Below, in pieces: positions 2,250 through 19,152 of a stretch of DNA of 57,978 bases. How positions within the stretch are numbered: position 1 is the stretch's first letter; each line of letters starts with the position of its first letter. Source of the stretch: Candidatus Omnitrophota bacterium (GTDB lineage: Bacteria; Omnitrophota; Gorgyraeia; Zapsychrales; Zapsychraceae); assembly GCA_020632515.1 (NCBI GenBank), contig JACKFK010000012.1, positions 1 through 57,978 of the forward strand. Direction: 5' to 3'. Made by a program: the position numbers and the translations under genes. The notes beneath the pieces were generated by a model. The model was not told the DNA's origin. It saw only the letters and a program-made list of their open reading frames with translations, and searched no databases.

Positions 2250-2534
2250 ATGACACACGTAGTAACTCAACCATGTGTTAAGTGTAAATATACAGACTGT
2301 GTTACAGTTTGTCCGGTCGATTGTTTTCATGAAGATGAAGAAATGTTAGTTATTGATCCTGAAGTATGTATCGACTGTGGTGCTTGTGTTCCAGAGTGCC
2401 CTGTTCAGGCAATTTATCCTGAAGAAGATGTTCCCGAAGATCAAAAAAGCTATACCCAATTAAATGCAGACAAAGCGGCAAATCTCCCTGTTATTACCGA
2501 GAAAAAAGAGCCGTTAGCCAAAGACGGTCAATAA
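2250..2534 (+). CDS. fdxA: 7Fe/8Fe ferredoxin, FdxA family
   Basis: [18 protein letters not shown] and [16 protein letters not shown] match the Azotobacter FdI-type pattern. Confidence 0.92.
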
Positions 2535-2539
2535 AATAT

Positions 2540-2618
2540 AAAAATCCGGAATTTAAATTTCTAATTTCGAAACCTCCCACATTTTGTTTCGAATGGAAGC
2601 TTTAAATTTCGGATTTTT
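2540..2618. repeat. Long imperfect inverted repeat (~79 nt hairpin; terminator or REP-like element)
   Basis: AAAAATCCGGAATTTAAA (2540-2557) pairs with TTTAAATTTCGGATTTTT (2601-2618); inner TTCGAAAC/GTTTCGAA stem. Confidence 0.75.
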
Positions 2619-2637
2619 TATTCAGAGAAAAAATACT

Positions 2638-3120
2638 ATGTGGTTTTTCATGAATAGTTGTTATGTTTTAAGCATTATTTCCTTCATAGCGTTTATCATC
2701 GGCTTCTTTCAAGCTATTTTTCATTTTCATATTTTTAATGCCAACCATTTGACTTTCATGATTTTAGTTTGCATTATTTATTTTTTTACTGAAACACTCG
2801 TTATTTTCTTCTTTGTCGGAACAGGCGTAAGTGTCAAAGAATATTCGTTGGATAAAAATTTAGGCTCAGAATATCATAAACGCTCAATTAGTATTAAACG
2901 TAAAGTCTATCCCCCACTCTTATTAAACATTCTTTTTATGATTATTCTGTTTATTCTGGTCGGAGCCGTAGATACCTATCGGATTCCTGCATGGGTATAT
3001 TATTTAATTTATATTGGCAGTTTAATTCATTTAATAAAAGTTAAAATCATCCAGAATCAATGTTTCAGGGAAAATACAAAAATTATATTGGATATGTCTG
3101 GAATTCAACCTGTTTATTAA
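2638..3120 (+). CDS. Hypothetical polytopic membrane protein
   Basis: About 4 hydrophobic segments. ATG 2638 preferred because the track's TTG 2584 lies inside the hairpin. Confidence 0.7.
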   Translation: MWFFMNSCYVLSIISFIAFIIGFFQAIFHFHIFNANHLTFMILVCIIYFFTETLVIFFFVGTGVSVKEYSLDKNLGSEYHKRSISIKRKVYPPLLLNILFMIILFILVGAVDTYRIPAWVYYLIYIGSLIHLIKVKIIQNQCFRENTKIILDMSGIQPVY

Positions 3121-3125
3121 GTGCC

Positions 3126-3287
3126 ATGTATTATTTAGTAAAAATTATTCAAGCCACTGGCTTAACCATTATTCTCATTGATTTCGTAAGGAAATTTCCT
3201 CAATTAATGAATCCGCGTATATTTCTTTTAGGAATATTTTTATTTACCTTAGGCTGGGGAGTAAATCACTTACTTATACGGAAGTAA
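3126..3287 (+). CDS. Small 2-TM hypothetical protein (53 aa)
   Basis: ATG 5 nt after the upstream stop; two hydrophobic helices. Confidence 0.55.
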   Translation: MYYLVKIIQATGLTIILIDFVRKFPQLMNPRIFLLGIFLFTLGWGVNHLLIRK

Positions 3288-3292
3288 ATTCT

Positions 3293-3415
3293 ATGAAAAC
3301 AATCCTAAAATTTGATACCGGTGCAGATGGTTTTAAATTCATGATTTATGTCTTAGCGATTACCGCAGTTATAGTTTTAGGGGCGGGGATCTACTTTATC
3401 GTAACCAATTTCTAA
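3293..3415 (+). CDS. Small single-TM protein (40 aa), absent from the ORF track
   Basis: MKTILKFDTGADGFKFMIYVLAITAVIVLGAGIYFIVTNF*, fills the gap between neighbours with 5- and 9-nt spacers. Confidence 0.55.
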   Translation: MKTILKFDTGADGFKFMIYVLAITAVIVLGAGIYFIVTNF

Positions 3416-3751: not shown

Positions 3752-4297
3752 GAAACAAGGTTTCAGACAATAATCACTATTTTGAAACTTTGGATAAGAG
3801 CAATTTTCATGCCATTGTTGAAATTCTAACTGTCCCCAGCGAAACGGCATACGATAAACAATATTTTCAGCTTCCACATCAAAAAAAAGATCTACTCCTG
3901 TTATTCTCCCTAACCAAACTCGAATTAACAGCATCTTTTCATTAATCCATTGAATCTCACTAATCCCGTGAATATTAGTCAAATTAAAAGAAATGAGATA
4001 ATTCCGTTCCGTAAAAATTCTAATAAAATAATTACCATCTCTTTCTTTTAAATGGTACGCGTATGCTTGATTAGGAGAAAACTGAATATCGTCACCCAGA
4101 ATATCATTAATGTGTTTTATATTAACAGCACCTTTAATCATCTTCAGGATATCTTGAGCATCTTCGCCCTTTAAATGATAAATTCTTTCTTTATCCCAGC
4201 AATTTGGAGGAGTATGATATTGATTTGCGAAAAGAAGCTGTGAAGAAAAAATTAGATATATGAAAATCGAAGAAATAAAAAACGGCTTAAAAGACAT
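3740..4297 (-). CDS. Hypothetical secreted protein
   Basis: Signal-peptide-like N-terminus; overlaps the DUF420 stop; 12-nt convergent overlap with 3425..3751. Confidence 0.6.
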   Translation of the reverse strand: MSFKPFFISSIFIYLIFSSQLLFANQYHTPPNCWDKERIYHLKGEDAQDILKMIKGAVNIKHINDILGDDIQFSPNQAYAYHLKERDGNYFIRIFTERNYLISFNLTNIHGISEIQWINEKMLLIRVWLGRITGVDLFFDVEAENIVYRMPFRWGQLEFQQWHENCSYPKFQNSDYCLKPCFSIH

Positions 4298-4703
4298 ATA
4301 ACATTAAATAAATAATCACTCCAGTAATGGAAACATAAATCCATGCCGGATAAAGCCAGCGAGTGATCTGGGTGTGGCGCTTAAAATCATTCTTGATAGC
4401 ATGATAAACAGCGACACAGCAGGCCGGAACAATAATAGCGGCTAAAGGGGTATGCGTTAGTAAAATAAAAAAATAAATTACACGCAAAATACCTTCTCTT
4501 TGATAACGTGTGGGGCCTGGAGAAATATAATGATAGGTTAAATAAGACGTCAAGAATAGCGTCGAAGTAATCAGCGCGAAAATCATAAATTGCTTATGCA
4601 AGGATTGATTATTCGCCTTAATCGCTTTATAGCCAAGAAATAAAAAAACACCAGCTGTCGCGTTAAGCCCGGCATTAATCATGGGGAAAATTGTAATATC
4701 CAT
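4287..4703 (-). CDS. DUF420 family membrane protein
   Basis: P.INA.LN, H...M, FL..YL.YH, YF.IL.TH..LA, H....RW..P.W.YVS.TG motifs; typical of cox loci. Confidence 0.85.
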   Translation of the reverse strand: MDITIFPMINAGLNATAGVFLFLGYKAIKANNQSLHKQFMIFALITSTLFLTSYLTYHYISPGPTRYQREGILRVIYFFILLTHTPLAAIIVPACCVAVYHAIKNDFKRHTQITRWLYPAWIYVSITGVIIYLMLYVF

Positions 4704-4704
4704 A

Positions 4705-5295
4705 TTAGCGTTCTTTTAATAATTCCGCAGCGTCTTTAAAAAGTTTATTAACATCCAGCGTTTCTGTTCCTTCATAATAACCGCGAATATATCCGTGCCG
4801 GTCAACTAACGCAAATTTCCCACTGTGAAAGATTGGCTCTTCAATTGAACCTAATTTAAAACTATCAATAACAATTGCGCGTATATCCTCCCGGTTGCCA
4901 CTCAAAAAAAACCAATTATCTGCCTTAGCGGTGACATCATTTTCATATTTTTTTAATACGTCCGGAGTGTCATATTCAGGATTTACAGTGATGGAAACAA
5001 GAGAAATTCCCTTTACTTTTTCAAAAGTACGGCTTAATGATGCCATGTTTTTAGTCATAAGCGGACAAATATCACTACAAGTGGTAAAAATAAAATCTGC
5101 AATCCAAACCTTACCTAATAATTTTCGTGAATGAAACTCTTGTCCATGCTGATCAAGCAAAGAAAACTCTTCTACTTTTCCGATAGCTGGTAGTCTTTCC
5201 TTTTTGAGTTCCTTTTGAAAGGAATAAATTGTAAACGCGGCAAACAGTATTCCTACACTAATAGAAATTCCAATAAAAAAATTACGTTTACGCAT
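4705..5295 (-). CDS. sco: SCO1/SenC copper chaperone
   Basis: FIFTTCSDICP (CxxxC) plus IFHSGKFALVD His. Confidence 0.9.
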   Translation of the reverse strand: MRKRNFFIGISISVGILFAAFTIYSFQKELKKERLPAIGKVEEFSLLDQHGQEFHSRKLLGKVWIADFIFTTCSDICPLMTKNMASLSRTFEKVKGISLVSITVNPEYDTPDVLKKYENDVTAKADNWFFLSGNREDIRAIVIDSFKLGSIEEPIFHSGKFALVDRHGYIRGYYEGTETLDVNKLFKDAAELLKER

Positions 5296-5312: not shown

Positions 5313-6179
5313 TTAGAAGTTTACATCCACAACGATCAGAAGTAATAATACTGGTAAATAATATACCGTGGTTTTAAGCAAATTCCTGGCATCTAAATTA
5401 GAGTGTGAACGAATAAATATCAGGCTTGATTGCAGAAGAAAGATTCCTGCTAATAATACACCAAAAAAATAAAACTTTCCTGACATTCCAATAAAAACAG
5501 GTATTAAAGAAACTGGTATTAAGATTAAAGAATAGATCATTATTTGTTTAAACGTACGCTTTCCATCTTCCTCGATACAGGGCAACATCTTAAATCCACC
5601 CCGTTTATAATCTTCTTTAAACATCCAGGCAATTGCGTAAAAATGAGGATGTTGCCAGATAAAAAGTATAAGAAACAGTATCCCTGCTTCAAAGCTTAAA
5701 CTTCCTGTCGAAGCAGCCCATCCTCCTAACGGTGGAAGAGCGCCTGGAATCGAACCAACGGTTGTGTTCAACCAGCTGACACGTTTCATCGGTGTATAAA
5801 CCATAATATAAAGAAATGATGTCAATAAACTCAAGAATGCTGTCAAAATATTTGTCTCGATATATAGATAGGCGACGCCAATAAGAGTGAGAATAATACC
5901 AAAAGTTAAAGCGTTAGTCGGTATAATAATGCCTGCTGGAATAGGACGGTTTTTTGTGCGCTGCATCTTTAGATCATATTCCCGCTCCATATAATGATTA
6001 AGTGCACTGGACCCAGCACAAACCAACCCGCTGCCAATCAACAAGTTTATCAATAAAGAAATAGAAGATATTCCTTTACCTCCTAAATAAAATCCAATGG
6101 TGGTTGTAACTAATACAAGTATAAGAATTCGTGGTTTCGTTAATTCAAGATAAGCTGAGATTTTTGATTTTTTTTTCAT
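5313..6179 (-). CDS. ctaB: Heme o synthase (protoheme IX farnesyltransferase)
   Basis: LTKPRI, ALNHYMEREYDLKMQRTKNRPIP, WQHPHFYAIA, DY..GG..ML. Confidence 0.95.
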   Translation of the reverse strand: MKKKSKISAYLELTKPRILILVLVTTTIGFYLGGKGISSISLLINLLIGSGLVCAGSSALNHYMEREYDLKMQRTKNRPIPAGIIIPTNALTFGIILTLIGVAYLYIETNILTAFLSLLTSFLYIMVYTPMKRVSWLNTTVGSIPGALPPLGGWAASTGSLSFEAGILFLILFIWQHPHFYAIAWMFKEDYKRGGFKMLPCIEEDGKRTFKQIMIYSLILIPVSLIPVFIGMSGKFYFFGVLLAGIFLLQSSLIFIRSHSNLDARNLLKTTVYYLPVLLLLIVVDVNF

Positions 6180-7153
6180 TGCTTAAAAAAGACTTTTTTA
6201 AATTCAAAAAAGGATATTGGTGCAACTCTTAAGAGAAACAAGAATGAAATCCCCAGGGTTGCAGCTCCAGTAAAAACATGTAAACTGGTAATAATTGGTG
6301 TTTTCATACTTAAAACTGTGATGATTCCCAAAAGAATCTGAATAATAATAACAGCGTTAAGTGTCGCGAGCGTTGATTTTACACGTACTGCCAAGTCTTT
6401 ACAGTTTAGTACAATCCAATTTAAATAACAAACGATAATAATAATAACTAAAGCCCATAATCGATGCGCGAAATGATATATAATCTGGTTTAAGGTAACA
6501 TTTTCTAAACCATTCATAAAACGCCAATCATTAATAGTGGTGAGCATTTTCTGATTAAAAAGCGGTATCCACTCTCCTCCCATTTTCGGAAAATCATAGA
6601 TCGCTAAACCAGAATGGGTGTGACGCATAACGGCTCCTAAAATAAGTTGAATATATATCGCCCCAACTAATATTACAGAACCTTTAATAATAGACGCATT
6701 AATACTAGCTTTCTCTTTCTGACGATTATTAAATTCAAAAGATAAACTATAACTTAATAAAATTGTCATTAAAAAAAATGTTTGCGCTAAAACACCGTGA
6801 GCGACAGAGACCGGTGTTGGTAAATAAAATAACACTGTAATTCCTCCTAAGACACCTTGAAGAATTACTGCCAATAATGCTACACTTCCTAAAATTTTAA
6901 CCCATCGCCTTTCCTCTTTAATCCAAAGCCAAATACACAAGACCAACATCATAAAACCAATTAAAGATGCGACCATACGATGGCCGTGCTCATAAAAAAC
7001 ACCTCCCACCATTGGTGGAAAAAATGTTCCATACGATAATGGCCAATCAGGCACAGCTAATCCTGACCCTGTGCTGGTGACCATACCTCCAATGAAAATA
7101 AGCAGAAGTGTTGAAAAACACGTAAGTTTTGCAAATATCCGTAACATAAGCAA
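6176..7153 (-). CDS. ctaA: Heme A synthase (COX15/CtaA)
   Basis: GLAVPDWP, YEHGHRM, QGVLGG.TV, VSVAHG, HFAHR, TSLHV histidine motifs. Confidence 0.9.
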   Translation of the reverse strand: MLMLRIFAKLTCFSTLLLIFIGGMVTSTGSGLAVPDWPLSYGTFFPPMVGGVFYEHGHRMVASLIGFMMLVLCIWLWIKEERRWVKILGSVALLAVILQGVLGGITVLFYLPTPVSVAHGVLAQTFFLMTILLSYSLSFEFNNRQKEKASINASIIKGSVILVGAIYIQLILGAVMRHTHSGLAIYDFPKMGGEWIPLFNQKMLTTINDWRFMNGLENVTLNQIIYHFAHRLWALVIIIIVCYLNWIVLNCKDLAVRVKSTLATLNAVIIIQILLGIITVLSMKTPIITSLHVFTGAATLGISFLFLLRVAPISFFEFKKVFFKQ

Positions 7154-7204: not shown

Positions 7205-7990
7205 TTAATTCCAAAAATCGTCGTACTCTTCTGAGCCCTCGGCATCAGCAGACACCGCATGTTTGGCCAGCCAAGCATCATATTCATCTTCATGATGAAC
7301 AATGACATTACCACGCATATAATAATGTCCAATACCACACAATTGTGCACAAGCGATTTCCCATTTCCCTGATTTTGTGGGGGTAAACCAAACAGGGATA
7401 CTTAATCCAGGAATAGCATCTTGTTTAACCCGCATGACTGGAATAAAGAAACTATGAATGACATCACGAGAAGTTAAATCAATAATAACTGGCCGGCCTA
7501 TAGGCAAATGCAATTGATTAATCGTGGTAAAATCATCTTTACCGTTGGGATCATTAGGATCAATTCCCATTGGATTAGTCTGTTTATCAAAAAATTCAAT
7601 ATCAGTATTTCCAAAAATACCATCGGCTCCAGGATAATGAACATTCCAGGCGAATTGCTCGGCATTCACGCGAACATTAACAGCATTTGGTCTATTTGGT
7701 AAAGCACTGACCTGTTTAGACCAAAATGGTAAAGAAAAACCAACAAGTAATAAGGCTTCAAAAACGACAATTCCTACTTCGAGATACGACGATATATGCG
7801 AATGAACTCCATGATAATTAGCCTTATGATTTGCTCTTTTTCGAAATTTAAAAACTGCAATAAAAAAATAAATTCCCCATCCGAAAAATAAAGCAAACAT
7901 CAAAAAATGAATTAAATAGATCATCATGTCAATTTCATGACCATGCGAGGAAGCATTTATCGGTAAATAAAAGAATTCACGTAGACTCAT
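7205..7990 (-). CDS. ctaC: Heme-copper oxidase subunit II (CuA), no fused cytochrome c
   Basis: Two TM helices; DVIHSF and CAQLCGIGHYYM CuA ligands. Confidence 0.9.
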   Translation of the reverse strand: MSLREFFYLPINASSHGHEIDMMIYLIHFLMFALFFGWGIYFFIAVFKFRKRANHKANYHGVHSHISSYLEVGIVVFEALLLVGFSLPFWSKQVSALPNRPNAVNVRVNAEQFAWNVHYPGADGIFGNTDIEFFDKQTNPMGIDPNDPNGKDDFTTINQLHLPIGRPVIIDLTSRDVIHSFFIPVMRVKQDAIPGLSIPVWFTPTKSGKWEIACAQLCGIGHYYMRGNVIVHHEDEYDAWLAKHAVSADAEGSEEYDDFWN

Positions 7991-8217
7991 TTATTCTCCA
8001 GCGAATTTAAGGTGATTTTCTCATATCTTCGTAAACGAAAGATAAATTTTACAAAAAATGATAATACAAAGATTGTAATGAGTAAAAGCGTTAAAATTGA
8101 CCACTTCAAAGCATTAATTGAAGGATCATTTGAAACATTAGAAAAGCAAACACTGCAGGCATTAACAGAAATTACAGAACTAAAATAGAAAAATATTGTC
8201 AAAATTAAAAAATTCAT
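7987..8217 (-). CDS. Small membrane protein with CxxC (ACSVCF), in the oxidase operon
   Basis: 4-nt overlaps with both neighbours; signal/TM, CxxC, TM. Confidence 0.7.
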   Translation of the reverse strand: MNFLILTIFFYFSSVISVNACSVCFSNVSNDPSINALKWSILTLLLITIFVLSFFVKFIFRLRRYEKITLNSLENK

Positions 8218-8414
8218 TTTAATTGCCGTGTTTTTGAAATAAATTTAACTTCATAAAAGATCAGAGCGATTACTATAATCAATGAAGAAACTGAGGTAAT
8301 AAGATAACTTGATTGCCTTTCCATTTGATAATATCCAAAGGCCCAATACGCAAACCATCCGGATAAAAGAATTGAAAAAATAATAAAGATAATATGAAAT
8401 CCTTTAAGGGACAT
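8214..8414 (-). CDS. Small 2-TM protein in the oxidase operon
   Basis: MSLKGFHIIFI start overlapping the subunit IV stop; two TM helices. Confidence 0.65.
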   Translation of the reverse strand: MSLKGFHIIFIIFSILLSGWFAYWAFGYYQMERQSSYLITSVSSLIIVIALIFYEVKFISKTRQLK

Positions 8415-8718
8415 GATGTAATCCTTCATAAATACTATAATGACTTACATAAATTAAAAGAAGCATCGAAATGAAAAAAAATCCTGTAAATATCAATAAC
8501 CAATAAATTACAGGTCTTTCCGTTGCCAAATGCATAAAAAAACTAGCAACTAATGAAGCTTTAAAAGTTGCTATGATTAAGGCTAAAATAATTGCCAGAT
8601 GAACTGCCAGATGGAATTTAGCAGCCAACACAGTAACTACTGTGAAAATTAATAGAGCAAAATATATTTTTTTATATTTTTTGATATCTTTTTCTAAATT
8701 GTGTGCACCTGAGGACAT
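8404..8718 (-). CDS. ctaF: Cytochrome c oxidase subunit IV family protein
   Basis: 3 TM; IATFKASLVASFFMHL motif. Confidence 0.85.
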   Translation of the reverse strand: MSSGAHNLEKDIKKYKKIYFALLIFTVVTVLAAKFHLAVHLAIILALIIATFKASLVASFFMHLATERPVIYWLLIFTGFFFISMLLLIYVSHYSIYEGLHHVP

Positions 8719-8737: not shown

Positions 8738-9331
8738 TTACAGTAAATAAAGAATTGGAAATAAAAAAATCCAAACTAAATCAACAAAATGCCAATATAA
8801 TCCAACAATTTCAATACGGTTCGTAAATCGATCTGCCTGGGTCTCCCACATTTTGGAACCAGGTCCCCAAAAATAAGTTAAAACAACAATTCCACCTATA
8901 ATATGTAATGCATGTAATCCCGTTAAGGTAAAATAAATAGCCAAAAAGGTACTTTCTTTTGGAAAATGATGGTGTTCAAATTTAGCACCGTATTCAAAAC
9001 TCTTGACGACTAAAAAAAGCAAAGCTAATAAAATCGTTATTCCTAAGAAATTCTTAAATCGCGCGAAATTATTTTCCTTAAGCGATGTCCAAGAAAAAAC
9101 CATAGTAACACTCGAAGTGATTAAGACAGCCGTATTAAATGTACCTATAGGAACATTTAACAGACTAGCTCCATGAGGCCAATGCTCAGCCCCAATGCGT
9201 AAAATAACATAAGTTGAAAATAAAGCTCCAAATAACATTACCTCTGAAGCAAGAAATAACCAAATACCCAATTTTGCGTTAAAAACGCCAGTATCTTTAC
9301 GTTCTTCGACGGTATACGGAATGACATCCAT
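8738..9331 (-). CDS. ctaE: Heme-copper oxidase subunit III (short form)
   Basis: LGIWLFLASEVMLF, TGLHALH, YWHFVDLVW. Confidence 0.92.
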   Translation of the reverse strand: MDVIPYTVEERKDTGVFNAKLGIWLFLASEVMLFGALFSTYVILRIGAEHWPHGASLLNVPIGTFNTAVLITSSVTMVFSWTSLKENNFARFKNFLGITILLALLFLVVKSFEYGAKFEHHHFPKESTFLAIYFTLTGLHALHIIGGIVVLTYFWGPGSKMWETQADRFTNRIEIVGLYWHFVDLVWIFLFPILYLL

Positions 9332-11067
9332 TATTTAATATCCTTAATATTTTGCGGTGTGAAGTCCTCACTCGCCCCTGGCACACTGTATTCATAGGGA
9401 CCACGGTAAACAACTGGCAATTCTTTAAAATTACCATGCCCCGGAGGTGTTGGTGTTTGCCATTCTAAAGTTGTTGATTGCCAAGGATTGTCAGAGTCCA
9501 CATTCTTAGGTTTAACCATACTCCACAACAAATTCAGAATAAATGGAATTTGCGCAAGCCCTAATATCCACGCTGAAATGGAGACAAATTCATTCATGTG
9601 TAAAACCCCCTGCGCATGAGCGTAAGTTGCCCCACCATCATAAAGTCGACGAGAAACACCCGCAAGCCCTTGCAGGAGCATTGGGAAAAAAATACAGTTC
9701 ATTAAAACTAATGTGGGCCAAAAATGGAGATGACCTAATAAATCATTCATCTTGCGCCCAGTAAATTTTGGAAACCAATAATAAATTCCCGCAAATAACG
9801 CAAAGATAACTCCTGGAGCAACAACATAATGAAAATGTCCGATCACATAATAAGTATCATGTAAATATACGTCTGGAGCAGCTAATCCTAGTGGTAATCC
9901 AGTTAATCCCCCCATAGCAAACATTGGAATAAATGCTAATGTGAAAAGCATTGGAATATTAAAACGAATTGACCCTCCCCAGAGGGATATTGCCAAGCAT
10001 GTTAAAACGATAACGGATGGGATTGAAATAATCATGGTTGTAGCTTGAAAAAAGGCGCTGATAGCGGTTCCCATTCCAGTTAAATACATATGATGCGCCC
10101 AAACAATGAAAGACATAAAACCTAAAAAGATAACAGAATACACCATGGTTTTATATCCCCATAAGGGTTTTCTAATATTATTCGCTAATATTTCAGTTAC
10201 AATACCAATAGCTGGTAAAAGAATAACATAAACCTCAGGATGACCTAAAAACCAAAATAAATGCTGCCATAACAAAACGCTTCCACCGCCACTAACTTCT
10301 AATGGCTGTCCACTGACTAAAAGACCACTTGGTAAAAAGAAACTGGTATGAGCCACACGATCCATTAATTGTAAGATCCCTGCAGCTTCTAAAGGAGGAA
10401 ACGCTAAAAGTAATAGGAGTGAAGTAATTAATTGCCCCCAAACAAAAAATGGTAGACGCATGAAAGTTAACCCTTCAGCACGCAGTTGAATAATTGTTGT
10501 AAGAAAATTAACCGCTCCTAATAATGATGAGGTAATCAAAAAAACCATTCCTAAAATCCATACAGTTTGTCCGATTGTTGCAAAATTTGCCAATGGTGGA
10601 TATGCTGTCCAACCTGAATTGGCTGCGCCTCCAGGTAAAAAGAAACTAACAAGCATTGTGAGCCCACCAACTAAAAAGACCCAATAACTGGCCATATTCA
10701 ATTTTGGAAAGGCCATATCAGGAGCTCCTAACTGTAATGGAACAATTAAATTTCCGAAGCACCCTACTCCCATCGGAACAACACCTAAGAAAACCATGAT
10801 CGTGCCATGCATGGCCCCAAGTTCATTATAAAAAGTAGGAACCATAACACCACCAGGAGCCCGATCTTCCCCGAAAAATTTGCCAATAAATGGAATTGCT
10901 TGTTCTGGGTAAGCCAATTGCCACCTCATAAGCATCATCAAAAAAAATCCAAAAAGCAAAAAGGATAAGGATGTAACACCATATTGAATTCCAATGGTTT
11001 TATGATCTGTAGAGAAAAGATATTTTTGCCAGAAAGGCAGTTTATGTTCGTGATGTTCGTTTGACAT
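9331..11067 (-). CDS. ctaD: Heme-copper oxidase subunit I, A1-like, K-channel Lys replaced by Val
   Basis: HGTIM, GAPDMAFP, GWTAYPP, GHPEVY, WAHH, HDTYYVIGHFHY, RR all present; helix VIII reads IPSVIV rather than IPTGVK. Confidence 0.93.
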   Translation of the reverse strand: MSNEHHEHKLPFWQKYLFSTDHKTIGIQYGVTSLSFLLFGFFLMMLMRWQLAYPEQAIPFIGKFFGEDRAPGGVMVPTFYNELGAMHGTIMVFLGVVPMGVGCFGNLIVPLQLGAPDMAFPKLNMASYWVFLVGGLTMLVSFFLPGGAANSGWTAYPPLANFATIGQTVWILGMVFLITSSLLGAVNFLTTIIQLRAEGLTFMRLPFFVWGQLITSLLLLLAFPPLEAAGILQLMDRVAHTSFFLPSGLLVSGQPLEVSGGGSVLLWQHLFWFLGHPEVYVILLPAIGIVTEILANNIRKPLWGYKTMVYSVIFLGFMSFIVWAHHMYLTGMGTAISAFFQATTMIISIPSVIVLTCLAISLWGGSIRFNIPMLFTLAFIPMFAMGGLTGLPLGLAAPDVYLHDTYYVIGHFHYVVAPGVIFALFAGIYYWFPKFTGRKMNDLLGHLHFWPTLVLMNCIFFPMLLQGLAGVSRRLYDGGATYAHAQGVLHMNEFVSISAWILGLAQIPFILNLLWSMVKPKNVDSDNPWQSTTLEWQTPTPPGHGNFKELPVVYRGPYEYSVPGASEDFTPQNIKDIK

Positions 11068-11076: not shown

Positions 11077-11799
11077 TTATTTTTTATCAGGTCGTGAGAA
11101 TGTAAAATTAATTTCTTTTGTTTCTCCCTCTGCTACTGTAAAAGAAACTCGCTGGGGATCTAGTCGCTGCTGCCAGGCTTCAACAACATAATCGCCCGGA
11201 GGAAGATTATCAATAGTATACTTCCCTTCCTTGTTTGTTGTCGTAAAGTATGGGTGCTTCAAAACAGAAACATATGTACTCATCCATGGATGAACATCGC
11301 ATTTCATTGGAAACATAAATTCTTCTTTTTCGAATATTTTTGTAACTTCTTTCCGAAATTTAGGCATGGCAAGGTTAAATTCAGGATTTATTTTACATAA
11401 GGCGTGAACATTATGAAGAGTTCCATCCGGATTGAGAATTTTTACTGGTTGACCAACCATTACCCCGACAACTGGAGGATCATACATACACCCCTTTTGA
11501 TCAAGGATAACAGGCTCACTGGGAGTAGGATAATTTTTGTTGGGAAGTCCTTCAACAATGTGAAGAAAAACAAATTCCATTTCCTTGTTCGGCCCCAAAT
11601 TAATTGTTTTAGGGTTTACGGCCCCATCATGTTTTGTTAAACAAATAGGATCCGCATCCATTTTAATTTCTCGCAATTTTGGCACTTCCCCCTCATAAAT
11701 GACTGTCCCAGATACGCTGGCCGCTAATGCTAAAGAAGGAAACAATAGTGAAAAAAATAGTAAAAATAAAGATTTATCATATTTCATATATAGATCCAA
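11077..11799 (-). CDS. Secreted cupredoxin-like protein with carboxypeptidase-regulatory-like beta domain
   Basis: Signal peptide; HNVH and CDVHPWM type-1 copper-like ligand set. Confidence 0.7.
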   Translation of the reverse strand: MDLYMKYDKSLFLLFFSLLFPSLALAASVSGTVIYEGEVPKLREIKMDADPICLTKHDGAVNPKTINLGPNKEMEFVFLHIVEGLPNKNYPTPSEPVILDQKGCMYDPPVVGVMVGQPVKILNPDGTLHNVHALCKINPEFNLAMPKFRKEVTKIFEKEEFMFPMKCDVHPWMSTYVSVLKHPYFTTTNKEGKYTIDNLPPGDYVVEAWQQRLDPQRVSFTVAEGETKEINFTFSRPDKK

Positions 11800-11983: not shown

Positions 11984-14317
11984 TTATTTTCCTTTAAAAT
12001 TAATTTCTGGTTCCACCATTCGGACATCAATTTGTTTCGCTCTTTCCACAAGCCCCAATAATTCTCGACGATAACCAAACTTATCATTATCTAATGAATT
12101 TTCAATCCCTTCAATTACAGAATCATACGAAGCATCAGCCTTAAAATCAGAATTTCTCAACAACAACCCAAACTCCGCGACTGCAGCTGCGAATTGAAAA
12201 CCTTTCAATGGATTTTCCGTAATTTGATCGGTACTTAAACTTTTTTGAACAAGCCTGCTTTTGTTCTCATCAACTTTTTTATAACGAAATTTTACTGTTA
12301 GAAGATCTGAACTGACAACAGCATCTTTCTTTTGATAAATCAAAGGATCCACATTATTAATTTCTTCATTAGAACTAGTTCGTATAATTTCATATAATGC
12401 CGTTACGGAATGCCCAGGCCCCAACTCGCCGGCATCTTTTGTGTCGTCATTAAAATCTTCTTTTGCCAGCATGCGGTTTTCATATCCAATAAGACGATAC
12501 GCTTTTATTTGCGCCGGATTAAATTCAATTTGTAATTTGACATCTTTAGCAATAGTAAATAAGGTTGAGCCCAATTCATGAGATAACACCTTACGCGCCT
12601 CGTTCTCAGTATCAATATAAAAATAATTTCCATTACCCTTGTCTGCAATCTTCTCCATTTTATTATCTTTGTAATTCCCTGTGCCAAACCCAAGAATAGT
12701 CAAGAAAATCCCTTTTTCACGTTCATCTTCAATTAGACGAATTAATTCACTATCACTGGAAATTCCAACATTAAAATCACCATCCGTCGCTAATATTACT
12801 CGATTATTCCCTTTTTCAATAAAGTTCTCTTTTGCGATCGAATAAGCCAATTGAATACCTTCTCCACCTGCCGTCGATCCCCCCGCTTGTAATGTTTCAA
12901 TTGCTATTAAAATTTTATCTTTCGCCGAACCAGGTGTTGATTCCAATACTATCCCAGCTGCTCCAGCATAAACAACAATGGCCACTCGTTCATTCTCAGT
13001 GAGATGATTAACTAACATGGTCAATGATTGCTTTAATAAAGGCAATTTATTGGGTTGATTCATTGAACCGGAAACATCAATGAGAAAAACCAAATTACTC
13101 GGGGCTAACTGATTCGCATCCATTACTTTTCCTTGTAACCCGATACGAATAAGATGATGCTCAGAATTCCAAGGACAAACAGCCGCATCGGTTGTAACTG
13201 AAAAAAGTTCATCTTCCTGTGGTTGGGGATATTCATACGTAAAATAATTAATCATTTCTTCAATACGCACGCTATCGACCGGTGGCATTTGATTGGCATT
13301 AAGATATCGTCGGATATTACTATACGAAGCTGTATCCACATCTATGGAAAAAGTTGATAATGGAGTATCAAGGACGTTTAAAAACCCATTTTCATAAATC
13401 CGATCATACTCTTCAGTATTCATTGATTCTTGATAACCAATAATCTGACGAAGATTGATTGTTTCTTCATATTCGCCTTGCTTTGAAGATTCCATTGGAG
13501 TAATCACCAAACCACCCACTACCCCTGGCTGAATAGCATCCACCCCTGGAAAACTTTGTCTTACACCTGAGGATTCGACCGTTTGTGCAGCTGGTATATT
13601 TCTTCTTACATCCTGCAACTTTCCTTCATGCGTCCTTAGATCTCGTGATTCCTCCGTGGGTTGAAACAGATCAGCTATATTTTCGTTCATTGATATTTTC
13701 TTTAAATCACTTTTACTCGCACTCATACCTTTATCTTTATGCAAACGACCTCGTTGCGTTATACTTTGCGTCTTTTCAGAATCAAGACGACGATTTAACA
13801 TCTCTTCCTGCGTTTTTTCTTTAGATTCAAACGTGAAGCTTTCATCAACAACACTTTTAAAGTGAATAGAAGATTCCTTTTGTCCCCGCGTTAATGTGGA
13901 GACACTATCTTTCTCAGAAATATTTTTCGCCGTGCCTAAAAATTCATACTGTTCTGTTTTAGGAAAAATAATTTCTTTTTGTGGTGTATCGACCTGTGTT
14001 ATTGTCTTGGAGATAAAAAGAATTAAAAACACAGTGACTAATACCCCACCCCCAACACCATATCGCGCAAATGATCGTGGCTGAGAAAAAAATCTTTTCC
14101 CGCTGGACCCCTTTTCCATTTTCTTCTCTAGATCAAACGATAATTCTTCGTCCTTCCATTGATTGAGCGTCATTGAAAGTTTACCTAATTCACTGTAATA
14201 CCGTTGGCATTGTGCACAATGAGTAAGATGCTCTTTCAAAATTTCTTTTTCTTCACTAGTAGTTTCATTATCTAGATCAGCGCAAATCAGCATTTTAAAA
14301 TCCATATGCTCGGACAT
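11984..14317 (-). CDS. Zinc anti-sigma (HxxxCxxC)-TM-vWA protein of YfbK type
   Basis: HLTHCAQC; one TM; STFSIDVDTASY, LIDVSGSM MIDAS, TDGDFNVG, DAGELG. Confidence 0.85.
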   Translation of the reverse strand: MSEHMDFKMLICADLDNETTSEEKEILKEHLTHCAQCQRYYSELGKLSMTLNQWKDEELSFDLEKKMEKGSSGKRFFSQPRSFARYGVGGGVLVTVFLILFISKTITQVDTPQKEIIFPKTEQYEFLGTAKNISEKDSVSTLTRGQKESSIHFKSVVDESFTFESKEKTQEEMLNRRLDSEKTQSITQRGRLHKDKGMSASKSDLKKISMNENIADLFQPTEESRDLRTHEGKLQDVRRNIPAAQTVESSGVRQSFPGVDAIQPGVVGGLVITPMESSKQGEYEETINLRQIIGYQESMNTEEYDRIYENGFLNVLDTPLSTFSIDVDTASYSNIRRYLNANQMPPVDSVRIEEMINYFTYEYPQPQEDELFSVTTDAAVCPWNSEHHLIRIGLQGKVMDANQLAPSNLVFLIDVSGSMNQPNKLPLLKQSLTMLVNHLTENERVAIVVYAGAAGIVLESTPGSAKDKILIAIETLQAGGSTAGGEGIQLAYSIAKENFIEKGNNRVILATDGDFNVGISSDSELIRLIEDEREKGIFLTILGFGTGNYKDNKMEKIADKGNGNYFYIDTENEARKVLSHELGSTLFTIAKDVKLQIEFNPAQIKAYRLIGYENRMLAKEDFNDDTKDAGELGPGHSVTALYEIIRTSSNEEINNVDPLIYQKKDAVVSSDLLTVKFRYKKVDENKSRLVQKSLSTDQITENPLKGFQFAAAVAEFGLLLRNSDFKADASYDSVIEGIENSLDNDKFGYRRELLGLVERAKQIDVRMVEPEINFKGK

Positions 14318-14892
14318 TATTCACCTTCCTTAATCAGGCTTTTAAGATCAACCCGCAATTGTTCGCGCGCCCGAAAAATTAAAACTTTTACTTTTTCTAA
14401 TGAACACCCCAAGATCTCACTAATTTCTTGATAACTCAAAGAATGATACTGTCGTAAAACAATGGCTTCACGTGACTCTGGTGCTAATCGTTCAATAGCC
14501 TCTTTTACATATTCGCGTTCTTCTTTAATCACCAAAGCTTCGTGCGCCACTTTTTCTAAATCAGGAAAATCCCACTCACCAGAAGAATCTAAATCTTTAT
14601 TTTTTAAGTTTGTGGAAACAAATTTCCCACATTTTCGTAACTGATCGATGCATCGATTTCGGGTAATCGTAAACAGCCAGGTGGAAAATTTAGCCTTAGG
14701 GTTATAGGTATATTTCTTAGCAAAAAGAGACAAAAAGACATCTGCCGTTACATCCTCTGCATCCGCCCTATTACCCAAATAACGGAGAGTAAAATTAAAA
14801 ACACGCATTTTATACCTTTGATAAAGCACTTTGACAGCTTCCTCTCTTCCAGATTGAAATTCCAGCATTATCTGTTCATCATTCTGCGTCAT
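14317..14892 (-). CDS. ECF sigma-70 factor (SigW-like)
   Basis: Region 2 (DAEDVTADVF, KFSTWLFTITRN) and region 4 (LSYQEISEILG...VKVLIFRAR); stop overlaps the anti-sigma start. Confidence 0.92.
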   Translation of the reverse strand: MTQNDEQIMLEFQSGREEAVKVLYQRYKMRVFNFTLRYLGNRADAEDVTADVFLSLFAKKYTYNPKAKFSTWLFTITRNRCIDQLRKCGKFVSTNLKNKDLDSSGEWDFPDLEKVAHEALVIKEEREYVKEAIERLAPESREAIVLRQYHSLSYQEISEILGCSLEKVKVLIFRAREQLRVDLKSLIKEGE

Positions 14893-14920
14893 AAACTTCG
14901 TAACAACCTTTCATGCTTTA

Positions 14921-14946
14921 AACGTTAGGAAGGAAAAAAAGTTACA
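14921..14946 (-). promoter_or_regulatory. Putative ECF-type autoregulatory promoter
   Basis: TGTAAC-16 nt-CGTT upstream of a GAAAGG RBS and the sigma gene; matches the AAC/CGT ECF pattern. Confidence 0.65.
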
Positions 14947-15020
14947 AAATATTTAATAAGGTGATCACTCAAATAATACGCTTATTAAAAAATTGATCGG
15001 AACGAAGACTAACTTTTAGT

Positions 15021-15437
15021 TTATCGATATTTATCATATTTCAAGCCAATATGATGCAAAAATGGCTTAAATTTACGTGAAGTTTGGAAGTGGCGGAATT
15101 CACACCCGCAGCGGTAGCAATTAATAATATAGGGAACGCGACGATGCAAAAGCCAATCGATAAGAGCAAAAACCGGTAAACTTAAACCATAGCTAAATGG
15201 TACAAGAACAATTCCAATCAGCATGACCAAACATCCCAAAAATTGATTAAAATCCTTAGAAAGATAAAACTGTCGGCATTGACAAATTGGACAGTAATCA
15301 AAAATATCGTCTGGATTAGTAATAGTTCCCCATTTTGTTTGACAATGCGGGCAGGTAAGCTCCGTTAGGGAAGGAGTAATGTCCAGTGAATGATATTCAT
15401 TACATTCTTGACAATACCGGGCAATCTCAGGGTTCAC
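15021..15437 (-). CDS. Cys-rich (four CxxC) 2-TM hypothetical protein
   Basis: CQEC, CPHC, CPIC, CYRC around a TM hairpin; 4-nt overlap with upstream gene. Confidence 0.75.
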   Translation of the reverse strand: MNPEIARYCQECNEYHSLDITPSLTELTCPHCQTKWGTITNPDDIFDYCPICQCRQFYLSKDFNQFLGCLVMLIGIVLVPFSYGLSLPVFALIDWLLHRRVPYIINCYRCGCEFRHFQTSRKFKPFLHHIGLKYDKYR

Positions 15438-16207
15438 AGCGGGATCCCAAATTTAATCAAATAATATTTATACGTAATATCGCCAATCAAGATTGAACAC
15501 AACAAAACATATAAAATTCCTGTTGTAGCCTGAGTATTTTTTAGTTGAAGCGTTCCATTAGCAAAAAATAAACCAATAAATGGAAATAAAGTTCCAAAAA
15601 ATAATCCAATAAAAAGAAGAAAGCCATCCATTGTCATCATAAAATGTAGCATTGTTATCGAATCACCATCATAAATAAGATTATGGGTGAAAATATAATA
15701 AACATTCCATAACAAACGCAATAGCAAAAATCCCCATAAAAGATAAACAGATCGAATTAAATGTCCTAATTTTAAGCCATGAACATTGAGATACCAATGG
15801 CCTAAATTCATAGCAAAAAGCGCGGCACAAAAAATAAATCCCGCAAGAATTGAAATAGTTATAGCTTGCCCGTTAGAATCCAATAAAAATTTTTGTAAAT
15901 AAATATAGGCAACACTTCCTAAAAAAGAAGAAATTGTTAGCGGAAGAACTTTGGGATATTCCCTACTCCAATAATATTTAGAAACACTCCAAAAACTAAT
16001 TTTCCAAACTAATGTCCCGATTTTTATAAAATTTGGATACGGGCCGACTAAAATAAAAACTAGACAAACTCCACCCACAAAGTTGGCCACACCAAGATGA
16101 AAGCGATGAAAATTATCGCGTAATGGCTCCTTAAAACTAATCCAAAAACATAATGGATAAATAACAGCAAAAAGATAACTTGTCAGAAGAGTTACTTGGC
16201 CAAGCAT
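15434..16207 (-). CDS. Polytopic membrane protein with LGHWYL motif
   Basis: About 8 TM; MNLGHWYL; 2 nt from the multiheme gene stop. Confidence 0.75.
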   Translation of the reverse strand: MLGQVTLLTSYLFAVIYPLCFWISFKEPLRDNFHRFHLGVANFVGGVCLVFILVGPYPNFIKIGTLVWKISFWSVSKYYWSREYPKVLPLTISSFLGSVAYIYLQKFLLDSNGQAITISILAGFIFCAALFAMNLGHWYLNVHGLKLGHLIRSVYLLWGFLLLRLLWNVYYIFTHNLIYDGDSITMLHFMMTMDGFLLFIGLFFGTLFPFIGLFFANGTLQLKNTQATTGILYVLLCSILIGDITYKYYLIKFGIPL

Positions 16208-16209
16208 AA

Positions 16210-19152
16210 TTACTGCGCCGGGCTTGAAGAATTATCTGAAGAGGAATTAGTATTTTTCTTATCAGAGAGTGTGAATAAATAGTTGCGCAATACTCGAATC
16301 TGCTTGTTTTCATCACCCTCCAAAATATCCGGGGGCCCGGAATTTTCATAATCTAAAGGATCAAAGAAAGTAGGCATCTTGGTTCCTGGCAGCAAACTTT
16401 GTGGATCTTTGATCCATTGAATTAACCAATCAGGACGAAGACGCGTTTTCGCCAAAGCTAAATTAGGCGCTAAAGTTTCTTCCGATGCCGCCGGAATTTT
16501 ATTGCCAACAACGTGACATTTTGTACAATCAAAAACTTCAGTAGAAAACATCAATTCTGCGGCTTTAAATTCGTCATTGCTCAAATTTGTATCCGGCTCT
16601 GTATAAAATGTGCTTTGCTCATCATCAAGCGTTGCAAAGAATTTTAGCAATTGATTCAAATGCGCGACATTAAAGCTATACGTAGGCATACGCGTTTTTA
16701 ACCAAGGTCGTACTTTTTGAGTTGGTTGATGAAGAAAATTAAAGAGCCAGTCGGGATCTAATTTTTTTCCAATTCCTCGTAAGTTTGGCGGATTAAATCC
16801 TTCATGAACTTTTTCAGCTTCTTTACTATCTCGTCCTTCATATTTAACTAACCAATCCTGAAGGGTTGGATAAATGGCCCCACCCTCATCTTGAATAATG
16901 TGACACCCTTGACAATTAAATTGAGCAACGATTTCTTGTCCTTTTTCTTTAAATAGTCTATCAGGTGTTCGCGCAACTTTTTTCTTTTCAACTCCTGAAT
17001 CTTTGGTGAACCCTAATAAAGCCGTAACCACAGCTTCTGTTTCTTGATCAGATAAATTAAAATTAGGCATCACCAATTTTTCATCCGGGGCTTTAACTTT
17101 ACCGTGATCAAAAATACGGGGATCTTTTAATTTCTGAGTAAACCAAGCTTCTTTGGTATGATCAATATCGTGAATAAATCCAAAGTCAAGATTATGTAAA
17201 GATTTACTTCCTTCTTCCGTTAACTCAGTACCGATAGGTTTACGATTTCCAAAGCCAGAAATATTATGACAAGAATAACAACCGTACTGCCCAATGAGTT
17301 TTTCACCAGAAAATAAAAGTTTCTGCTGCTGATTCATCGCTGCTAATTCAGTTGTTGCTTTTTCTTTTGGTAAGTTCTTTTTTAAGAAATCAAAGGCGAT
17401 CTCATTTAAAACCTTATCATCAATCATTGGACTTGTTTTACTTGCAAAATTAGTATTTGTATCCGCAATTAAGAAACTGGCAATATCAGCCGCCTCCTGA
17501 TCAGTCAAACGCAAATTAGGCATTCGTGTTTGCGGATGATAACGCTGCGGATCTTTAAGCCAATCAATTAACCATTCCCGAGTCGTTTTCGTACCGATTC
17601 CAGATAAAATAGGACCAAATCTTCTTCTGAGAGAATTCGCTGTTTCCGGCTGAGCTTGCGCTTCATCCTTAAGTTGGTGACAGGCCAAACAACCAACAGA
17701 ATTAACTAAACTTTCTCCATTAATCGGATTTCCCTTTAAAGAATTTACTTCTGCGGTAAACGCCTCACTTTTTGCAAATAGATAGTGTACAATCGCATGA
17801 ATTTCCTGCTGACTTCGCAACTTGGATTCCGGATCACTATTATTAGATTGATTAAAATAACTGGGCATCCATGTCTTATGGCGGAAAGATTGCGGATCTG
17901 CAATCCACTTATAAGCCCAAGCAGGTGTTAATTTTGAAGCAATTTGTGTTAAGTCTGGTCCAGTTTTGGGCCAATCTTTATATTTATCAATAACGTGACA
18001 ATTATAACAACCCGCACGCTCGATAACATCTAATCCTAAATTTAATTTGTCAGCCCCTTTAATCGTTGATTCTCCGCTATGACATTTAAAACATCCCGCT
18101 TGAACATTCACTAACGGCAACATTGGTTCTTCCCAAAGCTCTAACTTTTCCCAATCATATTTTTCAATCCATGCTTTCTTTTGCACCGCAGAAGCAGGTG
18201 TGTGTGCTGCGCGCGAAAAATCAATACCGCGACTACGTCCGCCATGACAAACCGTACAGCCAAATTCTTCCAAAGGATGCGGGGAATCATTACCAACAAA
18301 TAACTCTAAATTCGGATGAGTTTTAAAAGGCTGAGCTTCGTCTTTATAATCTGGATTACTAATCCCCAAATGGCAAGTGATACAACGTTCCACTTTTGGA
18401 ACTGTCATGAAATTGACATCGTCCCGGACATCTTGTAAAACAACTTGCTCTATTTTTAATGAAGGATTTGCTAAATCAATAACCGGAAGATTACGAACCA
18501 TCTGCGCCATTTGATTAACAAATGACATTTCCTGAGGGTCAATCTTATTTAACTTTCGATCGAGTAAATTCTTTTTTTGAACAAGCTGACGTTTTTCTTT
18601 TTGAAGATTTTCAAGTTCTTCTCCACAAGAATCAATAATCTTTTCTTTGGAAAATAATTTCTTATTAGATTCCTCAACTTGTAAATTTAAAGTTTTGGTT
18701 TTTTCATCCAAAGCGTAAAACTCAGTACTTGCCTGTTCCAGATTTGCAGCATGATGAGATTGAGCTGTTTCATAACGATATTTAGCCGCATCCATTTCCG
18801 CTTTAGAAAATTTATACTGCTGATTTAAAATTTCATTCTCAGCCTGTAATTTGGCTAATTCTTTTTCTAATTCTTTAAACTGACATTTTTGATCAAATGC
18901 CGCTTGCGCAGTTTCTAATTTAGCTAATAACTCCTCATATTCACCATTACTGGCGAGCTTTACTTCTTCCGCATCTTTCTTCACCCTTGTCTTTTCAATT
19001 TCTAAGGTTTGAAATTCAGTTTGGTATTTTCTCCATTCTTTATCGTTATCACGAAGAAAAACCATTCCTAAAGCAGAAAGCAAAACTAAACTTGCAATCG
19101 CAAAAAGAAAATTTAACTTATTTATATTGTAATGACGTTCGTCTTGTCCCAT
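16210..19152 (-). CDS. Membrane-anchored octaheme cytochrome c subunit of the Rieske/b complex
   Basis: N-terminal TM, coiled coil, eight CxxCH (CITCH, CTVCH, CFKCH, CYNCH, CLACH, CYSCH, CQGCH, CTKCH). Confidence 0.9.
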   Translation of the reverse strand: MGQDERHYNINKLNFLFAIASLVLLSALGMVFLRDNDKEWRKYQTEFQTLEIEKTRVKKDAEEVKLASNGEYEELLAKLETAQAAFDQKCQFKELEKELAKLQAENEILNQQYKFSKAEMDAAKYRYETAQSHHAANLEQASTEFYALDEKTKTLNLQVEESNKKLFSKEKIIDSCGEELENLQKEKRQLVQKKNLLDRKLNKIDPQEMSFVNQMAQMVRNLPVIDLANPSLKIEQVVLQDVRDDVNFMTVPKVERCITCHLGISNPDYKDEAQPFKTHPNLELFVGNDSPHPLEEFGCTVCHGGRSRGIDFSRAAHTPASAVQKKAWIEKYDWEKLELWEEPMLPLVNVQAGCFKCHSGESTIKGADKLNLGLDVIERAGCYNCHVIDKYKDWPKTGPDLTQIASKLTPAWAYKWIADPQSFRHKTWMPSYFNQSNNSDPESKLRSQQEIHAIVHYLFAKSEAFTAEVNSLKGNPINGESLVNSVGCLACHQLKDEAQAQPETANSLRRRFGPILSGIGTKTTREWLIDWLKDPQRYHPQTRMPNLRLTDQEAADIASFLIADTNTNFASKTSPMIDDKVLNEIAFDFLKKNLPKEKATTELAAMNQQQKLLFSGEKLIGQYGCYSCHNISGFGNRKPIGTELTEEGSKSLHNLDFGFIHDIDHTKEAWFTQKLKDPRIFDHGKVKAPDEKLVMPNFNLSDQETEAVVTALLGFTKDSGVEKKKVARTPDRLFKEKGQEIVAQFNCQGCHIIQDEGGAIYPTLQDWLVKYEGRDSKEAEKVHEGFNPPNLRGIGKKLDPDWLFNFLHQPTQKVRPWLKTRMPTYSFNVAHLNQLLKFFATLDDEQSTFYTEPDTNLSNDEFKAAELMFSTEVFDCTKCHVVGNKIPAASEETLAPNLALAKTRLRPDWLIQWIKDPQSLLPGTKMPTFFDPLDYENSGPPDILEGDENKQIRVLRNYLFTLSDKKNTNSSSDNSSSPAQ

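Follow-up and report, generated by a model that had tools for sequence, protein, structure and literature searches.

How an A-family haem-copper oxidase could deliver the protons of its reductive half-cycle when the lysine of the K-channel is missing is the question raised by a gene on a 57,978-nucleotide stretch of a Candidatus Omnitrophota genome (assembly GCA_020632515.1, contig JACKFK010000012.1, positions 1 to 57,978; in the following, the window). This gene, coxI, encodes the subunit I (CoxI) of a cytochrome oxidase bearing valine in place of the lysine. In textbook A-type oxidases, the K-channel lysine is held to be indispensable, as its mutation prevents the active site from being reduced. 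A previous inspection of the DNA letters (the sequence-only reading) had left the choice between an enzyme relying on the D-channel alone, an alternative proton path and a terminal substrate other than O2 (H2O2 or NO). Among these, an alternative path fits best, and a buried glutamate of subunit II (CoxII), conserved in a large clade of lysine-less relatives, is the candidate for its mid-path group. The CoxI positions relevant to this question are:

9331..11067, reverse strand: coxI/ctaD, haem-copper oxidase subunit I, 578 amino acids (Pfam COX1, 1.9e-129; A1 motif GHPEVY)
10696..10752, reverse strand: D-channel entry residues N106, D117 and N124 (Paracoccus denitrificans N113, D124 and N131), intact
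10228..10242, reverse strand: H276 (CuB ligand), E278 (end of the D-channel) and Y280 (cross-linked tyrosine, predicted), invariant in alignment A1
10192..10197, reverse strand: T291 (canonical Ser) and E292, lower end of helix VI
9997..10026, reverse strand: S348, S351 (equivalent to T351) and C357 (Paracoccus S357, Rhodobacter sphaeroides S365), K-channel face of helix VIII
10006..10008, reverse strand: codon GTT of Val354, equivalent to K354 of Paracoccus, K362 of Rhodobacter and K319 of the bovine enzyme

A phmmer search of all PDB chains with CoxI as query is led by aa3 oxidases (1e-114 to 1e-100) and pairs the segment 'sipsvivl' of helix VIII (TMIISIPSVIVLTC) with 'avptgikf' of the mycobacterial enzyme. 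Hence, Val354 occupies the position of the K-channel lysine, as the sequence-only reading had stated, and the codon GTT at 10006-10008 bears this out. From helix VI through helix X, the CoxI numbering coincides with that of Paracoccus. Likewise, the claim that the six histidine ligands, the tyrosine, the D-channel Asp and Asn residues and the Glu of GHPEVY are intact holds upon alignment and codon check: H87 and H413 are present for the low-spin haem, H411 for the high-spin haem and H276, H325 and H326 for CuB, and Y280 in GHPEVY, the predicted cross-linked tyrosine, is invariant among 53 sequences. The Mg ligands H403 and D404 are retained as well. With an AlphaFold (AF2) model of CoxI (pLDDT 87, pTM 0.90), the best 50 PDB matches in Foldseek are all A-family oxidases (TM-scores 0.82-0.86). 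According to the published definitions, the A-type K-channel comprises Lys354, Thr351, Ser291 and Tyr280, and the D-channel of the A1 type Asp124, Asn113, Asn131 and Glu278, also Tyr35, Asn199, Ser134 and Ser193 (Sousa et al., 2011; PMC3084760). In CoxI, the K-channel set reads Val354, Ser351, Thr291 and Tyr280, with the exchanges at 351 and 291 being conservative, and the equivalents of the primary D-channel set (Asp124, Asn113, Asn131, Glu278) are all in place. By these residue assignments, CoxI looks like an A1 oxidase in every other respect and departs from the type only in its K-channel.

The loss of lysine extends far beyond the window. A homologue search covered a collection of 5.8 billion sequences, and among the best 120 proteins taken (73-100% identity), I or V stands at position 354 in all that matched the helix VIII motif (97/97); all homologues with more than about 57% identity to the window carry I, V or L. 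Scanning a single genome for each GTDB species yielded 80 loci. At 58-74% identity to the window, I, V or L is found in 42 of 42 loci, which belong to Vicinamibacteria and other Acidobacteriota, Thermoanaerobaculia, Verrucomicrobiota, Marinisomatota, Planctomycetota and Hydrogenedentota; at 44-50% identity, 35 of 35 loci from various taxa possess lysine, and locus L066 (Acidobacteriota, 48% identity) has Ile. A tree of the lysine-less homologues, suggested as a check by the sequence-only reading, was computed with FastTree from 193 near-full-length CoxI sequences and unites the lysine-less relatives in one clade of 71 tips (Shimodaira-Hasegawa support 0.979), which is nested among lysine-bearing A1/A2 groups (parent support 1.0). 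Accordingly, the loss of lysine in this clade is single, derived and old.

Owing to the clade-wide fixation of I, V or L, Val354 is, as far as sequences can tell, neither a sequencing error nor a sign of decay. That the gene might represent an artefact or a pseudogenising copy can practically be dismissed, considering that the substitution is fixed in about 190 sequences from independent assemblies and that an uninterrupted frame goes with invariant catalytic residues and a complete operon. Already the sequence-only reading had held the assembly genes against decay; with ctaA, ctaB, SCO1 and DUF420 present, this argument stands, and CoxI is intact and under selection. Very probably, it is a working O2 reductase of a fixed lysine-less clade. 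The accompanying statement that the lysine is nearly invariant in the A family is, however, true only of characterised enzymes, as among the best 150 of the 50%-identity representatives many lineages have I, V, L, Q, A, H, E or M at 354.

Within the clade, CoxI is remodelled around the missing lysine. Comparing 42 clade members with 36 lysine-bearing sisters, S291 (Rhodobacter S299) is invariant in the latter and A, G, S, T, C, I or V in the clade, and position 357 (Rhodobacter S365) is invariantly Asn in the sisters and A, S, C or T in the clade. S351 is kept in nearly all clade members, E292 is invariant, and at position 348 the canonical Ala or Gly is replaced by an invariant Ser. The D-channel and E278 are intact in almost all of them. 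By this pattern, the lower K-path of subunit I is dismantled in the clade and its top kept or reinforced.

A compensating Lys, Arg or His within subunit I was ruled out, since charged residues conserved in at least 80% of the clade are also found in the lysine-bearing sisters; the sole clade-specific charged residue of CoxI is E227 in a P-side (periplasmic) loop. A 13-residue insertion in the loop between helices V and VI, seen relative to mycobacterial CtaD, is common to the lysine-bearing sisters and irrelevant as a clade feature. Hence, another lysine in the channel, which the sequence-only reading had named as a finding that would speak against its claim, is not observed; instead, a putative compensating carboxylate resides in the partner subunit. 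The CoxII positions in question (transmembrane helices abbreviated as TM) are:

7205..7990, reverse strand: coxII, CuA subunit of 261 amino acids without cytochrome c domain (Pfam COX2, 5e-14)
7907..7909, reverse strand: His28 in TM1, clade-specific (canonical Leu/Phe), in 95% of the clade and 1/36 outside
7778..7780, reverse strand: Glu71, the K-channel entry Glu (Paracoccus E78, Rhodobacter E101, bovine E62), aligning with Rhodobacter 'pLEiaw'
7757..7759, reverse strand: Glu78 (window numbering), clade-specific buried Glu in mid-TM2 (canonical Pro/Thr)
7343..7345, reverse strand: Gln216, at the place of the CuA-loop Glu (Mg/Mn ligand at the interface of subunits I and II), Gln in 100% of the clade and mostly Glu in sisters

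CoxII possesses the CuA motif CAQLCGIGHYYM with the ligands H179, C214, C218, H222 and M225. It was aligned to subunit II of Paracoccus and Rhodobacter from the PDB, and its AF2 model (pLDDT 89) places TM1 at 17-48 and TM2 at 66-93. While the entry Glu E71 is retained by 84% of clade CoxII, E78 is Glu in 97% of them and in 0% of the partners of lysine-bearing CoxI, where sisters have Pro or Thr. When Asp and Glu are counted at all interior positions of TM2, an acid is present in 38 of 38 partners of lysine-less CoxI versus 0 of 36 partners of lysine-bearing CoxI, and in these 38 proteins it stands 12 or 11 residues before a conserved Trp. In addition, the canonical TM2 Trp is replaced by V/I74, W38 in TM1 is clade-specific (97%), and the CuA loop reads C-x-Q-L-C-G. 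The signature of clade CoxII consequently consists of H28, W38, V/I74, E78 and Q216, with E71 mostly kept. The TM1 changes H28 and W38 fall at 7877-7909; going by its place in the helix, H28 is at about the membrane depth of E78 and could pair with it. In the literature searched, there is no description of a mid-TM2 carboxylate or of a subunit II stand-in for the K-channel lysine.

By indirect arguments, E78 would lie at about the depth of the missing side chain. In the CoxII model, E78 is seven residues (two turns, about 10.5 Å) above E71 on the same face of TM2, and eight residues separate V354 from the N-side end of helix VIII in the CoxI model, a predicted position consistent with the depth of E78. 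Molecular dynamics simulations of the Rhodobacter enzyme gave distances of 21.5-23 Å between E101 and Y288 and 8-12.6 Å between K362 and Y288 (PMC9687966, Table 3). These values put the lysine roughly 10-13 Å higher than the entry Glu, level with the +7 position. Of subunit II, helix II is one of the helices enclosing the K-channel (PMC6115622), and at the bile-acid site it runs next to subunit I helix VIII (PMC9961948).

An acid in TM2 is also found outside the clade. CoxI of L066 is nested inside a lysine-bearing group (support 0.87 and 0.998), and its CoxII, counted among the 38, carries an interior TM2 acid; to judge from these placements, the lysine was lost a second time, independently, in L066, and subunit II made the same gain. 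Further lysine-less lineages were sampled from the 50%-identity representatives:

P0169: CoxII with TM2 Asp at the equivalent position (11 before Trp); no acid in helix VIII
P0135: CoxII with TM2 Asp at the equivalent position (11 before Trp); E353 in helix VIII
P0200 and P0147: CoxII with TM2 'IVDGH' and 'AVDGT', respectively; no acid in helix VIII
P0213: no TM2 acid in CoxII; E345 in helix VIII
P0220: no TM2 acid in CoxII; D352 in helix VIII
P0168 (K to Q): no TM2 acid in CoxII; no acid in helix VIII

As the tree positions of P0135 and P0200/P0147 are weakly supported, two independent events are sure, and there are perhaps four or five.

The following path is proposed. The enzyme would be a proton-pumping aa3-type O2 reductase with the D-channel working as usual, and the protons of the reductive half-cycle would still enter via the K-path region, rebuilt, however, across the interface of subunits I and II. 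They might proceed from E71 to E78 of CoxII, further to S351/S348 of CoxI, the farnesyl hydroxyl of haem a3 and Y280. In this route, the carboxylate of E78 would reach in from TM2 as the mid-path protonatable group, a neutral buried Glu thus acting as proton carrier in place of a neutral buried Lys, and space for Glu and water would come from the smaller residues at 291 and 357. What speaks for it in the drift at S291 and N357, in S351/S348 and in the recurrence of E78 is residue pattern, conservation and distribution. For E78 being the functional stand-in for lysine, we see a chance close to and at best even; for the remodelled two-subunit K-path as a whole, which is the best explanation we can offer, the scales are level.

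A general rule for the A family may tentatively be drawn up, though we would sooner expect it to fail than to hold: with a hydrophobic residue at 354, a buried carboxylate would take over as mid-channel carrier, either in trans from TM2 of CoxII (clade of the window, L066, P0169, P0135, P0200/P0147) or in cis from helix VIII (E345, D352, E353, E354). If true, the K-path would be a two-subunit device, the key ionisable group of which has moved between subunits and changed its sign several times. In the literature searched, no paper describes a carboxylate-replacement rule for lysine-less A-family oxidases.

Several points weigh against the two-subunit path. The predicted orientation of E78 towards the K-cavity is derived from the periodicity of the helix and from descriptions in the literature. 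Moreover, the stretch of canonical TM2 from the entry Glu to the conserved Trp is about three residues longer, and the counterpart of E78 is therefore ambiguous (Pro at +7 or the residue at +10). E78 could also pair with the equally clade-specific H28 for structural reasons. The contrast in TM2 acids between 38/38 and 0/36 partners stems from few independent events, and the literature search returned no biochemical study of any clade member. Finally, conservation of the D-channel N/D/N and E278 in nearly all of the clade would suit an oxidase that has abandoned the K-path and takes up all protons, chemical as well as pumped, via D117, N106/N124 and E278, with E78, H28 and W38 serving packing or other roles. 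Drift at S291 and N357 is as expected of a disused channel, and the same has been proposed for lysine-less oxidases of iron oxidisers (10.1101/2020.03.01.968255).

Such an exclusive use of the D-channel is difficult to reconcile, however, with E71 of CoxII being kept in 84% of the clade, S351 in nearly all members and S348 being newly fixed, and a buried transmembrane Glu conserved at 97% beside the channel is hard to explain by packing. Furthermore, the TM2 acid recurs in the independent lysine loss of L066, and the oxidase of a Hydrogenedentota metagenome-assembled genome (L032; coxI at 1618-3297, coxII at 4412-5230) has T/G/S for the D-channel N/D/N and Ala for the CoxII entry Glu, yet keeps E78. 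The iron-oxidiser lineages, unlike the clade, have a hydrophobic residue at the position of the entry Glu. Hence, the D-channel-only option of the sequence-only reading, an idea already published for iron oxidisers, is unlikely. It ranks behind the remodelled K-path in view of the retained entry Glu and the newly acquired buried Glu, both in subunit II.

With canonical aa3 oxidases (Paracoccus denitrificans 1AR1/1QLE, Rhodobacter sphaeroides 1M56/2GSM, mycobacterial CtaD), the enzyme of the window shares the fold (TM-scores 0.85-0.86, 36-40% identity), the six His, Tyr280, the GHPEVY Glu, the D-channel N/D/N and the Mg ligands H403/D404, and also a two-TM CuA subunit II with entry Glu, subunits III and IV and the haem A genes. 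In contrast to them, it bears Val354 (I/V/L in the clade), conservation of S291 and S357/N357 is lost in the clade, CoxII has E78, H28 and Gln for the CuA-loop Glu and lacks the TM2 Trp, and its genes are arranged as coxI-III-IV-x-y-II where the canonical order is II-I-III. CoxA of rus operons (Acidithiobacillus, Acidiferrobacter, Sulfobacillus) has in common with the window a hydrophobic residue at 354 and a kept D-channel, and these enzymes are regarded as working O2 reductases. The lysine-less oxidase of Acidithiobacillus has been purified. Unlike the window enzyme, iron-oxidiser CoxA carries one or two additional TM helices at its N-terminus and has Thr351, and the entry Glu of its COX2, kept in the window, is replaced by V, I or W. 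For iron oxidisers, hydrophobic replacements of K354 were described together with the proposal that the K-channel is non-functional and the D-channel kept (Degli Esposti, 2020; 10.1101/2020.03.01.968255).

Lysine-less A-family oxidases as such are already known from sequence catalogues, and the window adds a further case to a very large lineage. Lysine-less COX1 with tabulated K-channel variants have been compiled (Degli Esposti, 2021; PMC8239418, supplementary table for Fig. S7), and seven independent lysine losses were inferred among the archaeal COX1 analysed (PMC8239418). Closest in residue pattern is the lysine-less 'KC-channel' A1 class with Elusimicrobia GWA2_38_7 and MAG13, Ca. Calescamantes and Methylacidiphilaceae (PMC8239418, Suppl. 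Tables S1, Fig. S7), which is defined by a hydrophobic residue for K354, Ser for T351, Cys or Val for S357, E292 and Ser at two positions of helix VII (PMC8239418). The window shows V354, S351, C357 and E292 as well as S311 and S319 (the equivalents of M311 and G319 in helix VII). GWA2_38_7 is listed as Y280, A291, I354, S351, C357, E292, followed by G-I-S-S (PMC8239418); the Elusimicrobia pattern Y-A/S-I-S-C-E is that of the clade, the residues of the window being Y, T, V, S, C, E, G, M, S, S. The A1 motif is common to the class and the window, and neither has additional TM helices at the N-terminus, a likeness that is drawn from the published residue pattern; none of the listed Elusimicrobia, Calescamantes or Methylacidiphilum sequences is among the 80 named genome loci. 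In that catalogue, COX2 was tracked at the entry Glu only and a second Glu in mid-TM2 is not mentioned; Ca. Omnitrophica is placed only in the lysine-bearing 'Planctomycetian' A2 class (PMC8239418), which by identity (about 50%) corresponds to the second oxidase type of Omnitrophota. Relative to the catalogues, the matched and recurrent gain of a carboxylate in subunit II would be new.

A lysine-free K-path of hydroxyls and water as in the B family, with E78 being peripheral, has also to be considered. The ba3 oxidase of Thermus thermophilus (1EHK) shares with the window the lack of a K-path lysine and Gln in the CuA loop, and the C-x-Q-L-C of the clade is similar to the ba3 motif CNQYC. S348 and S351 are fixed in the clade. 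B-family enzymes indeed run with Thr/Ser/Tyr instead of lysine (PMC3084760). However, position 354 of the clade is bulky and hydrophobic (I/V/L; Val in the window) rather than Thr, the window has Ile and Thr where ba3 has Tyr in helix VI, and the best 50 structural matches mentioned above are all from the A family. Moreover, ba3 is without D-channel and Glu278 and has a one-TM subunit II, whereas the window encodes both D-channel and E278, subunits III and IV and an A-family fold. Overall, this B-like path is improbable.

Returning to the two-subunit K-path, the clade would offer a hypothesis accessible to mutation for the lysine-free delivery of reductive-phase protons, and it bears on whether the positive charge of lysine itself is needed. 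A large natural clade from at least six phyla, forming the sole oxidase in many genomes, would then work without lysine, its activity being inferred. Residue-based classifiers will misjudge such oxidases.

The reductase function itself can be evaluated from the genetic context, comprising besides coxI and coxII:

11077..11799, reverse strand: cupredoxin-like protein (HNVH...CDVHPWM) with CarboxypepD_reg (Pfam), first gene of the operon
8738..9331, reverse strand: coxIII, 197 amino acids (Pfam COX3, 7.7e-22)
8404..8718, reverse strand: coxIV, 104 amino acids (Pfam COX4_pro, 5.7e-11)
7987..8414, reverse strand: two small membrane open reading frames (ORFs) between coxIV and coxII, 66 amino acids at 8214-8414 and 76 amino acids with CSVC at 7987-8217
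6176-7153, reverse strand: ctaA (Pfam)
5313-6179, reverse strand: ctaB (Pfam)
4705-5295, reverse strand: SCO1 (Pfam)
4287-4703, reverse strand: DUF420 (Pfam)
22926-26801: F1 ATPase genes

The oxidase operon is thus part of an island with complex III, cupredoxin, ATP synthase and haem A genes. The genome of the window (1.66 Mb, 72% complete) has one PF00115 match, and no cytochrome bd was found in it at this completeness; CoxI is the only terminal oxidase detectable. Reduction of NO or H2O2, for which the K-channel would not be required, could be considered in view of K362M-type mutants keeping peroxidase-like partial reactions. The cross-linked Tyr, held to be required for O2 chemistry, and the CuB His have been treated as the hallmark of O2 reductases, with the Tyr being absent from nitric oxide reductases (NORs; PMC11214002), which are told apart by this loss and/or by altered metal ligands. 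CoxI possesses the Tyr and the three CuB His, at variance with the NOR families (cNOR, qNOR, eNOR, sNOR, gNOR etc.), it is the sole terminal oxidase found, beside complex III, haem A synthesis and ATP synthase, and the clade is widespread in lineages named like aerobes (Vicinamibacteria, Verrucomicrobiaceae). On account of these residues and of the island with complex III, cupredoxin and ATP synthase, the different substrate that the sequence-only reading had offered as third option is very improbable.

The gene order of the clade is (cupredoxin)-coxI-coxIII-coxIV-two small ORFs-coxII, and coxII-coxI in the sisters. A cupredoxin homologue is located beside coxI in many loci of both the lysine-less clade and the lysine-bearing sisters (L004-L063), and the cupredoxin-like protein is likely the electron donor. 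In tblastn, one or both of the small ORFs have weak matches at the same place in many clade loci, which suggests conserved extra subunits or assembly factors.

In Omnitrophota, a haem-copper oxidase is encoded in 64 of 201 genomes. The lysine-less type occurs in about 28 of them (67-75% identity to the window) and the lysine-bearing A2 type (HPAVY) in about 25 (about 50% identity). Several genomes have two A-family oxidases (G129, G022, G060, G068, G121, G178), and a third group of about 550 amino acids shows 35-39% identity. For O2 respiration, Omnitrophota, Vicinamibacteria, Verrucomicrobiota and Marinisomatota rely on this oxidase type, which is not known from bench work.

Among the 50%-identity representatives, a sizeable group of oxidases with fused subunits I and III (about 800-860 amino acids; P0168, P0174, P0198, P0205, P0226, P0230 and others) has Gln at 354 and often I, V, M or T at the position of N113; of their relatives, one has His at 354 and another Ala at 354 together with Trp at the position of E278. 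Two longer clade relatives, P0124 (732 amino acids; L112/L113, 6001-8199) and P0127 (691 amino acids; L114, 6001-8076), are without both the lysine and the D-channel N/D/N and keep E278, Y280 and all His. They are encoded by orphan coxI genes beside a cupredoxin, with no coxII or coxIII nearby, and are possibly differently wired; being orphans, they were discarded for deciding which of the two channels is indispensable, as they are uninformative for subunit II. In L112, a gene similar to formylglycine-generating enzyme (FGE)-sulfatase and a giant protein resembling Cu-oxidases are also located nearby. At the P0138 locus (L115), an upstream CoxII has an odd insertion and an acid only near the P-side end of TM2; the same contig holds a second CoxII, probably of another operon.

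In the window, the region 11984-22537 holds genes of an extracytoplasmic function (ECF) sigma factor and a zinc-finger anti-sigma factor with a vWA-YfbK domain, which lie between the oxidase operon and a Rieske cluster; the latter includes a split cytochrome b, a 980-amino-acid multihaem cytochrome c and a HEAT-repeat gene, and the F1 ATPase genes come next.

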